Virus record (IMG/VR): IMGVR_UViG_2548876853_000015
From: a virus
Taxonomy: Duplodnaviria > Heunggongvirae > Uroviricota > Caudoviricetes
Strand: one strand, 5' to 3'
Length of the DNA: 6,725 nucleotides
Within the stretch, counting starts at the first letter, position 1. Each line of letters starts with the position of its first letter. The translations under genes and the position numbers were made by a program. This document shows, piece after piece, positions 548 to 6,725 of the stretch. The notes under the pieces are model-generated. The model was not told the DNA's origin and did not search any database. It saw only the letters and a list, made by a program, of their open reading frames with translations.

Positions 548-2032
548 TCATTCATTAAGCCATGCCAGAGCTTCATCAACCTGCGCTTCGTCTTCGACGC
601 TAAGCACTTCATCCTGGGGAACATAATCCGCCAGCATAGCGAAACAATATGTATCCCAATGGTCTGGTGAGTGCAGGTTGAGTTTTTTCTTCATATCCTC
701 CTTACTCATCACCTTCCATTGACCTGCGGAGTTAATCCCTACAGGGATTTTCGACGCTTCCTCAATAGTTTCATTACCCTTATCCAGTCTCATACGACCA
801 GATTTTACGGCCTCTGCGGCTTGAACGTTGGCATAAGCACGTTTATCAAAGTACAGGCTCTTATCTTCACGGCTATGCATCTTTTTACCCCAGCGTATGC
901 GCTGTACGGTAATACCATAATACTCGTACATCAGATCCGCCGTTGCTTTACCCAGGCCATCGCCGTCTATCGCTATGGTGATATTTGGGAATCGCTCAGG
1001 ATTACATTCTGCGAAAATTTTGGCGGCAAGCTGCGTTTCTGTAACGTCTGTGTATTCCAGCATTCGATAGTTGATTACACGGCGTTTATTTCGCTGGCCG
1101 GACACCATCATGATATTGATAACGGACTTATCCCGTCCCGTACCACCAGCAACGTCCACACATGCAAGCCAGCCCCATCCTTTTGCAATCTTGACTTTCC
1201 GCCGCGTTGCACGTTCAACCTCATCACGTCCAAGAAGGAAGCCATCCTGTGATTTAGGGAATAGGCCGCGTACCTTAATCATGTACATAGGGTTATCACG
1301 CCCGCCGTACTCCGCCAGCTTCATTTTGATAAATGCTGGCGTTACCAACGGTGATTCCTCACTGTTAAGCGTGATCGCCGTATAAACGCCATCAGGGTTA
1401 CCAGGACGCTTGGCCAGTTTATGGTGTGTATCGTAGAAATAGCCGCTTGGGCGTGTAGGCTGTGACAGTAATAAGATGCGGTTATCCTGTCCGGTAAGAG
1501 CACCGGTGATGATACCGAAAGCTCTATCACTGACACCGGAGGCTTCATCGATAATATACAGAAGATGATCTGCGTGTTCACCGGCAAGAGCTTCTTCACT
1601 TCCCAGACGAAAGCCCTTCGGTACTACAGTCCATACACCTTTACCAGTAACCTCATAGAAAGCGGTTTCTGTCAGAACAAAATAATCAGCAAGCCATGGA
1701 AAACGGCTGGTGGCAGTAGCCCAGTTTATCTTGATGTACTTGAATATACCGGTCATTACCTGCTGAATTTTGTTCGCAACGATAATGGCGCGGGCACCGG
1801 GATACATGATTATGAACAACATGATCATGATAGAAGTCATGTCTGATTTCCCGGTACCGTGACCAGACGAAACAGATGTCTTGCTACCCTGTTCCTGCAC
1901 AGACTCAATAATCAGATCCTGCTGCCAGGTAGGTGTTTTGCCGAACAAAACATCAGCGGCCGCAATCCAGTCATAACGATATAGCGCCACCAGCTCGCGC
2001 CAACGTGGATCCGTTACGCAACTTCTGGCCAT
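548..2032 (-). CDS. pacB: Terminase large subunit (P1 PacB-type), 494 aa
   Basis: 494-aa ORF with a Walker-A-like ATPase motif (SSGHGTGKS). Start ATG overlaps the pacA stop by one nt (TAATG). Size and position match the recalled P1 PacB (494 aa). Confidence 0.9.
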
Positions 2033-3225
2033 TAATCATCATCCCCGTATAGCTTGCGGGTAACTTCTTCGTCTTCCTCCTCGTCTTCGTCCAGGTCTTG
2101 TTCCAGCCATGGGTCGTTTGATACACCTTCAGTATCAACATCTCCATAACCGCCTGTATCAACGATATCGGCGATTTCTTCCCTACGCTGCTCAATCCAC
2201 AATGCGGCATCGGCGCGGCGGTTGGCGGCCCGTTCTCGCGCAACTTTGTCCAGATCTTCAAGAGAAGGGCCACCGACGGCTGTTTGCCTTTCCTCATCAT
2301 CGGTATTGGTCTTAGGAGCACGCAGATCGGCTTTGATTTGCTCCAGCATCAGGGGCGGAACTTTCCCACCATGCGCCTCGATAAATTCAGCTGCTTCCAG
2401 CACTGACCAGTTATTTTCACGCTTTCGTTCGTATGCCAGCTTAACAATGCCAGCTTGCCCCATAGACAAAGCGTGCTTTTCCGCCTCCCGGCTTTCTTTT
2501 CGATAGTTATTCCGGATGCTGTAAATGGTGTTGATCAGACTGCTTATCTGCGCGGAACAGCTGTTTAGCATGCTCGCGATACGGTATTCAGGCGGAGTGC
2601 CTTCATCATCGTCTTTTTGCTGATCGCGCATTTCCTGCACCAGGCGAATACACGTATCCCTGGCGTTCTCCAGCATAAGGAGATGAGAAAGAGACTTTTC
2701 AAGAAGAGTGGTTTCCAGAACATCGGCCCCGGACCGACGCAACATAGCGCGTGCGGCCTTCCGCGCTTCAACGTTATCTATCAGGTAATCGCCAGCTTCG
2801 AATTCAAAGCGTTCACCATCATCATCCAGGGTGTCGCGTTCCAGACGATCACGCAAGGTCCGGTGGGCGCGGGTGATCACGTCATGATCATCTGAACGAT
2901 CATTTATGCGCTTATTTTGGCGCTTCGCATTCTCGACTGCGGCACTGACAACGGCATTAACTCTCTGTTTTTCCGCTATTTCAGCCGCAATATGATCACC
3001 TGCATGTTGATCATTAGAGTGATCAATGATCATGCTTTTTAGTGGCTTCCTGACTGGCTTATTTGGCTTGCGGCTGTCCGCAGTCCTGGTGTCTTCTTTG
3101 AAGGCACGGAGATAACGACGTGCGGTATTAGGGTTAAGATTAAACTCGGCGGCATACTGTGCGATGGTGTAACCACCATCTCGCGCCAGGCGAGCAAAAT
3201 TCTTCTTGTGATCGTCCCAGGTCAC
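2032..3225 (-). CDS. pacA: Terminase small / pac-recognition subunit (P1 PacA-type), 397 aa, GTG start
   Basis: 397-aa ORF with an N-terminal helix-turn-helix-like segment ([27 protein letters not shown]) and a highly acidic C-terminus. GTG start at 3225 with SD AAGGAAG 5 nt upstream and an in-frame stop immediately upstream. The pac hexamer clusters lie inside its 5' third, as in P1. Confidence 0.88.
2874..3032. other. pac packaging site: two clusters of TGATCA/G hexamers (Dam GATC sites) flanking a roughly 90-bp hexamer-free core
   Basis: Hexamers at 2874-2879, 2885-2890 and 2897-2902 (the last as cgatca, i.e. TGATCG on the other strand), then 2993-2998, 3008-3013, 3020-3025 and 3027-3032. 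This 3 + 4 arrangement over about 160 bp matches the recalled P1 pac site (about 162 bp, seven hexamers). One further cgatca lies at 2846-2851. Confidence 0.75.
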
Positions 3226-3310: not shown

Positions 3311-3763
3311 TCAGATACGTGCGGATGTGGCATTACCGTAATGACGGTGCTGACGGGCCACCTTATTGAAAAGTTGACGCGCCATTACCCAAGGCTGGTG
3401 CTCCCGGCGTTCCTTTTCGTCCTGCGTCATATAGAGTTCGTTCTGGAGTTTTTCATCAAACCGGCGCGGAGCGCGGCTACGGCGAAAGAATTCAGGATTC
3501 AGAGAGTGGATCTGAAATCTACGTGGGCGTGTACTGTCATCAATCAAAACAGACGAATACTTAGACACAGCGATAGCCTTTAAGCGCAGATAAACATCGC
3601 GCTTATCGACATCCAGATGCGGGTATTCCTTTTCAAGAATTGCTGCGAGTTCTTTCGCTGATAGAAGAGATTTAGTGCGGATCATGTAATCCGCAATCTC
3701 GTACGATGTTATTCGTGAGTGATTTATTTCCATGAAGTGGCGTCCCTGCCAGTTAAGTAACAT
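3311..3763 (-). CDS. lpa: Candidate late-promoter activator (P1 Lpa / gene 10-like), 150 aa, basic
   Basis: 150-aa ORF immediately upstream of pacA, the position I recall for P1 lpa. SD GGTGA lies 4 nt before the ATG at 3763. Assignment is by synteny and size, not by a recognised motif; an alternative start exists at 3733 (MEINHSR...). Confidence 0.55.
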   Translation of the reverse strand: MLLNWQGRHFMEINHSRITSYEIADYMIRTKSLLSAKELAAILEKEYPHLDVDKRDVYLRLKAIAVSKYSSVLIDDSTRPRRFQIHSLNPEFFRRSRAPRRFDEKLQNELYMTQDEKERREHQPWVMARQLFNKVARQHRHYGNATSARI

Positions 3764-3851: not shown

Positions 3852-4895
3852 TTATCTAACGCTCGACGAGTGACTTGTGATAGCGCCGACTCCAAGCGCG
3901 TAATCAAAGAACAATCGTTGATGCATCGCCAGCCTACCGTGCGTCTTCTCCCAATTATCGCGGTCACGCTCAATATCACGCTGGCATGACTGGCACAGAG
4001 GAATTGCGTAAATGTCATGCGCGCATAATCGACTATGACGAACGATATAAGGCGTAATGTGAGCGCCAGCTCCCGCCGCTCCACACCCACAGCATGGACG
4101 GGAAGCAACAAAGTCCATGTACTCAGGTAATTTTAGCGATTGCAGTTTTGGTATTTTGAAATGCGCCATGCCAGGGTCGGAGTCAACATCCACAGGGCAT
4201 ACTTTTGCACGCATCGGCGCGGCGCGTTCTTCCATCATCTGAACATATGCTGTAGCGCGATCGTCATACGGGCGAATATCCGCCTCTTTCAGAGGTCCGC
4301 TATCCTGCGTTGCGGCTTTCATCTTATTTATTGATATACGGCAAACTTCTTCCGGCATCAGGTGCATCATGTTGCGCATGAAAGCCCACCAGCACAGTTC
4401 CTGAATACTTAAATCATGGCCATCTGAAAACCCCATTTCCTGACGGGCGACATCCAGGATCCAGTTAACGCGATTATTATGCAGCGTTTCTTTCAGCTCA
4501 TTAAAACCACGCATCCGGTAATGGTTATCGTGATGCCAGCACAACAACACCGCGCTATTGTCTCGTTCTGCGTGGACAATATGGTTGTCACACCAGCTAC
4601 GATCTGCGGCCTGGCATTGCCCCTCTTTCCTGCGCAACCACGCCACCAGCGCGTCAATTCCACCAATACGGCGAAACAGTTCATCGCTGTTAAAAAACGG
4701 CTGCAACGCCTCATTTGTTGCCATAGTTTGCTCGGAAACAACGAGGCCGTCGTCCATGTGCTCGATTAACTCACGCGGCACCGGCTCCATAATAAATTTA
4801 CGGCCAGCCTCCACCAGCTTTCTGACTTCCTGATCCACTTTGAATGTGGCGACGCCAAGCTCTTTTTGTACAAAGGGAGTAATTACGGCTTTCAC
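3852..4895 (-). CDS. Post-doc region protein, 347 aa, with a Cys/His-rich C-terminal module (possible zinc-binding HNH-like fold); function unknown
   Basis: 347-aa ORF with GTG start at 4895 (SD AAGGTG upstream). The C-terminus carries CCGCG ... H ... H ... CAH ... CQSC spacing typical of zinc-ribbon / HNH-like motifs. The position between doc and lpa corresponds to the pdc (post-doc) genes of P1; a resemblance to DUF968-type prophage proteins is a recollection, not verified. Confidence 0.65.
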
Positions 4896-4922: not shown

Positions 4923-5102
4923 TTATCTGCTGCCCGGCATTCTCTGTTTAAGCACAACCATTTCCTGACGGCATAACACAGCAATAGCAGTCCTGGCTCT
5001 AATTTGCTTACCAACCAGGTATTGCTTTACCTCGCGGCGACTCACGCCATCAAGAAGCATCTTTAACGCTTCACGGGACAATTTGTTGTATTTGCGTGCC
5101 AT
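4923..5102 (-). CDS. Small basic protein (59 aa) immediately downstream of doc, possible helix-turn-helix; post-doc region
   Basis: ATG at 5102-5100 lies 4 nt after the doc stop, and its SD (GGAG, 7-nt spacer) is embedded in the last doc codons, suggesting co-transcription with phd-doc. The track start at 5123 would overlap doc and lacks an SD. Protein MARKYNKLSREALKMLLDGVSRREVKQYLVGK... is Arg/Lys-rich. Confidence 0.5.
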   Translation of the reverse strand: MARKYNKLSREALKMLLDGVSRREVKQYLVGKQIRARTAIAVLCRQEMVVLKQRMPGSR

Positions 5103-5106
5103 TAAT

Positions 5107-5487
5107 CTACTCCGCAGAACCATACAATCTACGTAACGTGGCGGCGACAGAAGATACAGATATCTCGCCAGTCGCAGCCCCTACGGTAAGGTCTGCCAGT
5201 TCAGGTGAATCAAATACCTGCACCCCGTTACGGCGTAGAAATAGCAGCGCACTGTTTAGCGCGGTACGCTTATTGGCATCATTGAATATATGCCCTCTCG
5301 CAGTAGCAACCAGGTAGGTTGCGGAGATTTCGAAAAGGTCGGTGATCTCTTCGTAGGCAACTCTGGCCTGAACTCTCCCGATAATGGCCTCTGCCCTACC
5401 CGGATCTGACATTCCCGGCAGGCCGCCGTAGCGGCTTATATTCGCATCATGAAGCGCAATAAGTTCTTCCGGTGATATATGCCTCAT
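5107..5487 (-). CDS. doc: Doc toxin (Fic/Doc family kinase that targets EF-Tu), 126 aa
   Basis: Fic-type motif HIFNDANKR is present. The sequence matches my recollection of P1 Doc nearly residue-for-residue. Start ATG overlaps the phd stop by 1 nt (TAATG). Confidence 0.95.
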
Positions 5488-5708
5488 TATCGGTTAACCA
5501 GTTCCTTGTTGGTGGAGTCCAGGGTGTCAAACAGGGATGCAAATTCAGCATCCAGCGCCGCTTTTTTGTAGGCTTCGAAAGTAGCCTTGCTGACAATTAC
5601 TGCTGGCTCACGGCCTCTGCGGGTGATTTCAACCTCTTCCCCGGCTTCAACATTGTTAAGCACTTCAGAAAGGTTGCCACGCGCGGTACGGAAGTTAATG
5701 GATTGCAT
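5487..5708 (-). CDS. phd: Phd antitoxin (prevent-host-death), 73 aa
   Basis: [49 protein letters not shown]... matches recalled P1 Phd. I place the start at the ATG at 5708 (SD GAGGTG upstream) rather than the track's GTG at 5714. Overlaps doc. Confidence 0.93.
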
Positions 5709-5716
5709 AAACACCT

Positions 5717-5745
5717 CGTGTACTCGTTATGTGTACACAATTATA
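5717..5745 (-). promoter_or_regulatory. phd-doc promoter/operator: -10 TATAAT followed by two palindromic Phd/Doc operator sites
   Basis: Minus-strand TATAAT at 5745..5740. A perfect 10-bp palindrome TGTGTACACA (5730-5739) and an imperfect one CGTGTACTCG (5717-5726) lie between the -10 and the SD, consistent with known autorepression of this operon by Phd and Doc. Confidence 0.7.
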
Positions 5746-5780
5746 AACTTCACAGGCATAAAGCACCAGCACTTTGCAGC

Positions 5781-6170
5781 TTAAATGATCGGACAATCAT
5801 CAAACTCCCCACATCGGGCATCATTGATGACATGAGTGATCACACCAAAAACAGCATTACTACCCGTGTAACCATCGTCATCTACTGGTAACGCCTCTTT
5901 CTTCCCGGTGCTTAAATCCTCCAGGTGCTGGCGCGGATACTTCCTGTATCTCTTTATGCGATATTCACCCTCCATAGCGCAGACAAGCAGCGAACCATCA
6001 ACCGGAGTAAGCGAGGAATCAACCACCAGCAAAGCACCCTGCAATATTCCCTCACGGTGATGGCTGTCTGCCGCCCGCATGAAGTAGGTCGCTGATGGAT
6101 GCCTGATTAGTTGCTGATCAAGAGAAATTCTGCTTTCAACATAATCCGCCGCAGGAGAAGGGAAGCCCAT
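5781..6170 (-). CDS. humD: UmuD'-like translesion-synthesis accessory protein (P1 HumD-type), 129 aa, S24 peptidase-like fold without the N-terminal cleavable arm
   Basis: Strong similarity to recalled E. coli UmuD from the GFPSPAADYVE region onward (HPSATYF, VVDS, FGVITHV blocks). The protein begins about where UmuD is processed to UmuD'. SD GAGGTG upstream. Confidence 0.9.
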   Translation of the reverse strand: MGFPSPAADYVESRISLDQQLIRHPSATYFMRAADSHHREGILQGALLVVDSSLTPVDGSLLVCAMEGEYRIKRYRKYPRQHLEDLSTGKKEALPVDDDGYTGSNAVFGVITHVINDARCGEFDDCPII

Positions 6171-6189
6171 AGCGTTTTCACCTCAATAA

Positions 6190-6209
6190 TACTGTTCGTT
6201 TATACAGTA
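6190..6209. promoter_or_regulatory. LexA binding site (SOS box) TACTGT-N8-ACAGTA
   Basis: 6190-6209 tactgttcgtttatacagta has the canonical CTGT-N8-ACAG core with TA-extended ends. It lies 20-40 bp upstream of the humD start and about 135 bp upstream of the divergent plus-strand ORF. Confidence 0.85.
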
Positions 6210-6344
6210 TACATTAAAGAGACACCTTTGGTGCAAACGCGTTATGTACATCAACCACCGCAGATGATTTTGTGCGCTTTGCTACTATTCATCACCAACG
6301 GATCAGCGTAACCTCATTGCCAATCAGTTAATAAGGAATTAGCT

Positions 6345-6725
6345 ATGCCTAATCGCATTCCTCTCGATCCTGTATTGCCCAAAAATTTTGACTGCACTCC
6401 TAACGAGAGACGCTCTAAAGCTCAGCTGGACGCCTGGTGGGACCATCCCTATGGGGTTACAGAACATGACGGGAAAATTGTTGTTTATTGTCTGAATGGT
6501 GGCGCGTGGGACCGTCCATCCGTGCTGGGTTTGGCAAATAACTATGATGAAGCCTGTGAACTTGCCGAAAGACAGCAGGCTAGATGGGTAAAAACGCGGT
6601 CACAGCCGATATTTATGTACTCACAGGAACCTCCATTTGTGCTGGCGAGAATGCCGCAGCGACCGGATCTGAACCGCCCCGGGTTTCCTGGAGAGTATTT
6701 TATCTGTGAACTCAGGCTGCCAGAT
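6345..6725 (+). CDS. Hypothetical protein, 5' portion only (ORF runs past the right edge); divergent from humD across the LexA box, possibly the P1 lxr-like LexA-regulated gene
   Basis: ATG at 6345 with SD AAGGA 7 nt upstream; open for 127 codons to the window end (MPNRIPLDPVLPKNFDCTPNERRSKAQLDAWWDHPYG...). Not in the ORF track because it has no stop in the window. Identity not recognised from sequence. Confidence 0.6.
   Translation, partial: MPNRIPLDPVLPKNFDCTPNERRSKAQLDAWWDHPYGVTEHDGKIVVYCLNGGAWDRPSVLGLANNYDEACELAERQQARWVKTRSQPIFMYSQEPPFVLARMPQRPDLNRPGFPGEYFICELRLPD

Follow-up and report, generated by a model that had tools for sequence, protein, structure and literature searches.

It is very probable that the minus-strand reading frame at 5781-6170 of the DNA described here, consisting of 129 codons and a stop, is the humD gene of a P1-like phage-plasmid, and that it specifies a pre-processed UmuD'-like protein whose transcription would be gated by LexA and whose partner would be the UmuC protein of the host. 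The window, by which we mean the whole stretch of DNA that was analysed, is 6,725 nucleotides long and carries the putative LexA operator, or SOS box (TACTGTTCGTTTATACAGTA), at 6190-6209. The finding is a rediscovery of the humD gene of P1, the truncated design and LexA site of which have been in the P1 literature since the 1990s and in GenBank since 2004. As a discovery it matters little, members of the HumD family being named automatically by NCBI; its value is that of a positive control, in which the correct biology was reconstructed from raw sequence alone. The overlap of a putative -10 hexamer with the operator across distant phages, the C-terminal tail of the protein and the pattern in which its catalytic dyad has been retained may be additions to what the literature already holds; a further small addition is the interruption of lxr, the gene next to humD, by an element of the IS3 family.

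Origin and gene content of the window

To judge from its similarities, the DNA comes from a P1-like phage-plasmid of the Enterobacteriaceae, because the window as a whole is 93% identical in DNA sequence to P1 and P7, is 97.5-98.5% identical to the P1-like phage-plasmids JL22, RCS47 and SJ46, and has at least 80% of its length covered by 451 plasmid records. The gene order, pacB-pacA-lpa-pdcB-pdcA-doc-phd-humD-lxr, is syntenic with that of P1, and the long open reading frames of the window all lie on the minus strand. Genes were assigned through DNA similarity and the annotation of P1, with Pfam matches in addition for Phd and Doc. On the minus strand these assignments place pacB at 548-2032, pacA at 2032-3225, lpa at 3311-3763, pdcB (a DUF968/HNH-type protein of 347 aa) at 3852-4895, pdcA at 4923-5123, doc at 5107-5487 and phd at 5487-5714, the last of these being the gene downstream of humD and having an annotated promoter of its own in P1. 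The 5' part of lxr, at 6345-6669 on the plus strand, is divergent from humD and has in common with it the intergenic region that contains the LexA box; it is annotated in P1 as a "LexA regulated function" and matches PHROG 6164 and 17145 over residues 1-109.

An insertion sequence cuts lxr at 6669/6670, after about codon 108. A multi-copy element of the IS3 family contributes its terminal inverted repeat end as the last 56 bases of the window (6670-6725, beginning TGAACCGCCCCGGGTTTCCTGGAGAG). These bases have matches in more than 2,400 plasmid records, under features labelled "IS3 family transposase", and in about 190 Stx phages; the element resembles IS629/IS1203. Homology to P1 and to the best plasmid matches stops at 6669, and no P1-like phage or plasmid was found to cross the 6669/6670 junction among the best matches listed. 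The insertion point coincides with the -35 element of PhumD, a promoter predicted in the P1 record. At the left end of the window, downstream of pacB, there is a mosaic boundary that adjoins the packaging genes: positions 1-549 are without a match in P1, P7 and SJ46, whose matches begin at 550, and are matched by JL22, RCS47 and many P1-like plasmids. This segment has open reading frames of its own, e.g., that at 244-558 on the plus strand.

The HumD protein and the position of its start

The 129-residue protein, which begins MGFPSPAADYVE, is 98% identical to the HumD proteins of P1 and P7 and belongs to the HumD family on each of the sequence-level criteria that were applied. It matches the NCBIfam HumD equivalog model NF051876.1 ("HumD family translesion DNA polymerase") at 218.8 bits, the cut-off being 120, with residues 1-129 aligned to profile positions 1-129 of 129. 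HumD-like genes are found by tblastn in 93 phage records, and a protein search returned 592 clusters, many of which are named "HumD family". The preliminary description had taken the protein for a homologue of UmuD, and the alignment bears this out, with 45% identity to UmuD and a match to the UmuD' structure 1UMU at E=2.5e-23 over residues 2-118 (the UmuD' structures 1UMU and 1I4V were matched at E=1e-22 to 1e-23). The score for the Pfam family Peptidase_S24 (PF00717) is 36.1 bits against a gathering cut-off of 23.3, and both positions of the Ser/Lys dyad are present, their catalytic use being putative: alignment with UmuD equates Ser36 (6063-6065, minus strand) with Ser60 and Lys73 (5952-5954, minus strand) with Lys97. 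On these comparisons HumD would work like UmuD' and yet is not an orthologue of UmuD, because it has neither the N-terminal arm nor the Cys/Ala-Gly cleavage site and scores 87.9 bits, under the cut-off of 110, against the UmuD model NF007621 (autoproteolytic subunit of polymerase V). A repressor of the LexA or cI type was also considered and ruled out, since the match to TIGR00498 reaches 28.3 bits as against 110.95 and involves the C-terminal domain only, the N-terminal DNA-binding domain being absent. The fold assigned to HumD is a prediction from sequence similarity; an AlphaFold2 model, for which 34 sequences of close homologues were aligned, too shallow an alignment for the purpose, had a mean pLDDT of 46.3 and a pTM of 0.37 and did not yield the packing of the C-terminal tail.

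In UmuD, RecA-stimulated cleavage cuts the bond between Cys24 and Gly25, and Gly25 is the first residue of UmuD'. Met1-Gly2 of HumD aligns exactly with this Cys24|Gly25 site of E. coli UmuD, and the PDB chain 8gmt_B (full-length UmuD) gives an equal register, 25-136. No N-terminal arm can be encoded ahead of this start because an in-frame TGA lies at 6183-6185, five codons 5' of the ATG (the in-frame upstream codons are TGA GGT GAA AAC GCT). Overlapping that TGA, and 8 nt before the ATG, is a Shine-Dalgarno sequence, GAGGTG, read at 6179-6184 of the minus strand. Distant phages, and database homologues in the hundreds, have the start at an equal position: the proteins of P1-like phages (D6, RCS47, Cyrano, CMS-2020a), N15, phiKO2, HK639 and Hafnia yong1 start with (M/V)GFPSPA, that of Aeromonas pAEv1818 starts with MGMPKFASPA, and MGF opens 32 of the 33 aligned database homologues, the exception being MAFPSPAA. 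It had been proposed earlier that the protein is without the N-terminal arm of UmuD and is made directly in the UmuD' form. The alignment of Gly2 with Gly25 and the upstream in-frame TGA confirm the former proposal, and the latter agrees both with a start at the equivalent of Gly25 and with the record of the 98%-identical P1 humD. Synthesised in the UmuD' form, HumD would have no need of RecA-stimulated self-cleavage.

Homologue alignments delimit a family-specific C-terminal tail, residues 116-129 (5781-5825, minus strand), whose sequence, N-D-A-R-x-G-E-F-D-D-C-P-V-(M/I/L), is nearly invariant in the HumD family and absent from UmuD and from the UmuD of phage Oslo; Cys120 and Ile128 are rare tail variants in the allele described here. 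Among 34 close homologues the lysine of the dyad never varies, and the nucleophile position has Ser in 20 and Thr in 14 of them. At the nucleophile position there is a Gln in Aeromonas pAEv1818 and a Tyr in Hafnia yong1, with the Lys changed to Arg in both, and in such distant members the need for self-cleavage chemistry is relaxed. The notion that the dyad is decaying across the family was restricted, as it holds for the distant members only, the close enterobacterial homologues keeping the Lys and a Ser or Thr nucleophile.

The LexA operator and the probable promoter of humD

Read on the humD strand, the box is TACTGTATAAACGAACAGTA and ends 19 nt before the humD ATG. It has no mismatch to TACTGT-N8-ACAGTA, a result obtained in 0 of 200 dinucleotide shuffles, and it shares 16 of the 20 positions of the consensus TACTGTATATATATACAGTA, the four mismatches all being in the central spacer; the description of it as a near-perfect SOS box therefore stands for the arms and flatters the spacer slightly. 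A rough LexA matrix (a heterology-index-like score built from E. coli operators and of use only as a ranking aid) gives the box about 4.8, a value like those of the recA and lexA operators, and gives the runner-up among the 20-mers of the window 13.95; the box is the only LexA-like site that the window contains. GenBank annotates the same site as a LexA protein_bind feature in P1 (AF234172), as a "LexA binding site in the regulatory region of lxr and humD", and in P7 (AF503408), where it is assigned to "regulation of humD expression". A LexA box is found upstream in 11 of 11 related loci, with its arms kept 26-64 nt 5' of the start codon, and it is kept at humD-like genes in loci without lxr (D6, RCS47, Cyrano, CMS-2020a, N15 and others). 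While the arms stay fixed among the 11 loci, the 8-nt spacer and the flanking DNA vary, a pattern to be expected if the LexA site is under selection and belongs to humD. That the box is a chance palindrome is ruled out by the shuffles together with its conservation in related loci. Binding and repression by LexA at this predicted operator would be expected from the literature on P1 and from near-identity to it.

A strict sigma-70 scan of 5650-6725, with spacers of 16-18, found no promoter, because the -35 candidate is weak and stands at a 19-nt spacer. A relaxed scan that allowed 19 nt gave the candidate TTGCAC-N19-TATACT, in which the putative -10, TATACT (6206-6211, minus strand), overlaps the LexA box, its last four bases being those that open the box, and the putative weak -35, TTGCAC (6231-6236, minus strand), lies 19 nt 5' of the -10 and has 3 of 6 consensus positions. 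The combination of a poor -35 with a 19-nt spacer also fits the poor expression reported for HumD. TATACT is present at the same offset of -2 from the box in P7, D6, RCS47, Cyrano, CMS-2020a and Aeromonas pAEv1818, and the -10 position is occupied by CATACT in Hafnia yong1 and by TGTACT in P1. At the place equivalent to the whole candidate, the sequence is TTCACA-N18-TATACT in D6, RCS47 and Aeromonas pAEv1818 and TTCACA-N17-CATACT in Hafnia yong1. The arms of the LexA box and the overlapping TATACT are the upstream features conserved across very different phages, which would place the real promoter at the box. Upstream of the box, inside the proposed promoter spacer, there is a weak terminator-like hairpin (6222-6234, minus strand; GCACC-AAA-GGTGT followed by CTCTTTAATG), which, if real, would insulate humD from upstream read-through; with 2 such sites found and 1.3 expected the match is not significant, and the hairpin was left unused.

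We infer that a weak sigma-70 promoter, with its -10 TATACT overlapping the left arm of the LexA operator, most likely starts the transcription of humD. LexA bound at the operator would occlude both the -10 and the start site, so as to block RNA polymerase until DNA damage triggers the cleavage of LexA. An SOS-induced lysogen would then be supplied at once with a UmuD'-like protein, under transcriptional control only, and would skip the slow processing of UmuD. The gene does not share an operon with a cognate umuC, and no open reading frame for a Y-family polymerase is present in the window. Having no umuC of its own, HumD would be expected to pair with the UmuC and RecA of the host to give active polymerase V. 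UmuC-like genes are rare in phages; a tblastn search for UmuC in phages gave no P1-like phage among the 30 of 123 records listed, and "Escherichia" is outside the ten commonest names among the UmuC matches. A HumD-like gene is found in 33 Escherichia phage records.

The P1 GenBank record predicts a sigma 70 promoter for humD, the PhumD mentioned above, about 480 bp upstream and inside lxr (AF234172 87080-87106, equivalent to 6648-6674 of the window). The box might on that account serve mainly lxr, with humD transcribed from elsewhere, e.g., from PhumD, and not truly gated by LexA. The wording of the P1 record, which names lxr for its regulation by LexA and assigns the site to lxr as well as to humD, speaks for this possibility, as does the failure to find a strong consensus promoter beside the box. 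We nevertheless regard it as very improbable, since the box adjoins humD-like genes in loci where lxr and the upstream DNA are absent or different (D6, RCS47, Cyrano, CMS-2020a, N15, HK639, Aeromonas pAEv1818 and Hafnia yong1) and is 19 nt from the humD ATG as against 135 nt from that of lxr. The -35 of the far promoter, at about 6669-6674, has been destroyed in the window by the insertion sequence, and D6, RCS47, Cyrano and CMS-2020a, in which the box and TATACT are retained, lack the PhumD region. Even if transcription began at a far promoter, a LexA dimer seated 19 nt ahead of the ATG could still be a roadblock to it. The GenBank prediction of PhumD is thus probably not the functional promoter, and a promoter overlapping the box is more likely because the PhumD region is absent from most relatives and its -35 is interrupted here.

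Function of HumD and comparison with known systems

P1 is described as encoding an already activated, shorter UmuD (McLenigan et al. 1999, J Bacteriol 181:7005, as cited in PMC7092418), and PMC9603915, which cites the same work, is in agreement with this. The GenBank record of P1 says of humD, "DNA repair; functionally complements E. coli UmuD'". At 98% identity to P1 HumD, the protein encoded in the window would be expected to complement UmuD' in the same way and to interact with UmuC and with RecA filaments. In appropriate recA/umuDC strains HumD of P1 reportedly brought back mutagenesis as well as survival of UV, and it is said to have formed dimers and to have bound UmuC and RecA filaments. 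The complementation is reported to have needed a high-copy plasmid because HumD was poorly expressed from its own signals. The "mutagenesis factor" of the preliminary description can be kept as a capacity that is on record for P1 HumD, rather than as a proven natural role, because complementation needed high copy number.

A reading frame that lacks the counterpart of umuD codons 1-24 and stands without a umuC partner could also be the decaying remnant of a 5'-deleted umuD, and it might be added in favor of a pseudogene that CRISPRi knock-down of humD in P1 had no effect on plaque formation, humD being scored as non-essential. The probability of this is close to nil, as the selection analysis effectively refutes it. 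Values of dN/dS are 0.06-0.08 for humD in comparisons with six relatives (P1, P7, RCS47, D6, Cyrano and CMS-2020a), with dS up to 0.86; humD is under strong purifying selection and, because of these values, is a working gene and not a 5'-deleted relic. Against a pseudogene there are also the Shine-Dalgarno sequence, ATG and operator that the gene possesses, the identical start position in distant phages and hundreds of homologues, the conserved family-specific tail and the existence of a curated NCBI equivalog model. It is a different matter whether the working gene serves mutagenesis, as its real job for the phage could be to modulate the host damage response in another way, e.g., through a bypass of the UmuD2C checkpoint, the restraint of RecA-mediated recombination, or the trans-cleavage of host UmuD by the dyad. 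Lys73 and a Ser or Thr at the nucleophile position have been kept in all of the close homologues, which have no need to cleave themselves; the E-F-D-D-C-P-V of the tail is nearly invariant and foreign to UmuD; and the neighbours of humD are often modulators of replication or SOS, namely hot in P1, RCS47 and D6 and dinI in phiKO2. Trans-cleavage is reported to take place among UmuD-like proteins (McDonald et al. 1998). A role of this kind seems unlikely to us, given that the published complementation of UmuD' functions is already a sufficient activity and that the dyad has been lost in HK639 (Met for Lys), Aeromonas pAEv1818 (Gln/Arg) and Hafnia yong1 (Tyr/Arg); because of these losses in distant members, catalysis is not a family requirement. 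It is likewise a doubtful proposition, offered tentatively, that the tail, the dyad or both confer a phage-specific activity, which could consist in processing host UmuD in trans or in making a dedicated contact with UmuC, with RecA or with the replisome; if true, such an activity would give a prophage the means to reprogramme how the host damage response is timed.

The nearest known counterparts of the pre-processed, LexA-gated HumD proposed here are the HumD proteins of P1 (AAQ14073) and P7 (AAQ07575), which are also 129 aa long and have the same neighbours, LexA box position and Shine-Dalgarno sequence. The protein in the window differs from that of P1 at 3 residues (G103C, C120S, I128V) and from that of P7 at 2; the spacer of the box is ATAAACGA here and ATAAATGA in P1 and P7, a difference of one base; the proposed -10 is TATACT here and in P7 as compared to TGTACT in P1; and lxr, unlike its counterparts in P1 and P7, is interrupted by the IS3-family element. 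The similarity to E. coli UmuD and UmuD' (PDB 1UMU, 1AY9, 8GMT) is spread over the whole UmuD' part. HumD and UmuD' have in common the conserved N-terminus of UmuD', GFPSPAADYVE, the positions of the Ser/Lys dyad and an upstream LexA operator of the same type. As compared to UmuD, HumD is without the 24-residue arm and the Cys-Gly site and is not in a umuC operon, and it carries, in addition, an insertion of 4 residues and a C-terminal tail of 10. Because the arm and the Cys-Gly cleavage site are absent, HumD is without the RecA-dependent step of activation. The N-terminal arm of UmuD carries recognition signals for Lon and ClpXP, and HumD, by analogy, would lack this signal-bearing arm.

Farther afield, gp26 of N15, a linear plasmid-prophage, and the UmuD-like proteins of phiKO2, HK639 and HK140 are 64-69% identical to HumD and share with it the pre-truncated start, the C-terminal tail, the upstream LexA box and the absence of an adjacent umuC. 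Their genes differ in context, being situated after tail-fibre genes and beside partition or integrase genes, and the nucleophile in N15, phiKO2 and HK639 is Thr instead of Ser, with the Lys of HK639 replaced by Met. The upstream neighbour of humD also varies from one relative to another. It is lxr in P1, P7 and the window; in D6 (L003 2376-2522) and RCS47 (L006 2195-2446) hot, which encodes a homologue of the theta subunit of polymerase III, lies upstream of humD in the same orientation; and in phiKO2 (L009 481-723) a divergent dinI homologue shares the LexA site with the humD-like gene. From these variable neighbours it appears that humD tends to sit with small modulators of host replication or SOS. 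Phage vB_SosS_Oslo and the mucAB, rumAB and impCAB operons resemble humD as copies of SOS mutagenesis functions that are placed behind a LexA box on mobile elements. These systems, however, consist of a full-length, cleavable UmuD homologue followed by a UmuC-type polymerase of their own, whereas humD encodes a lone subunit that is already in its processed form.
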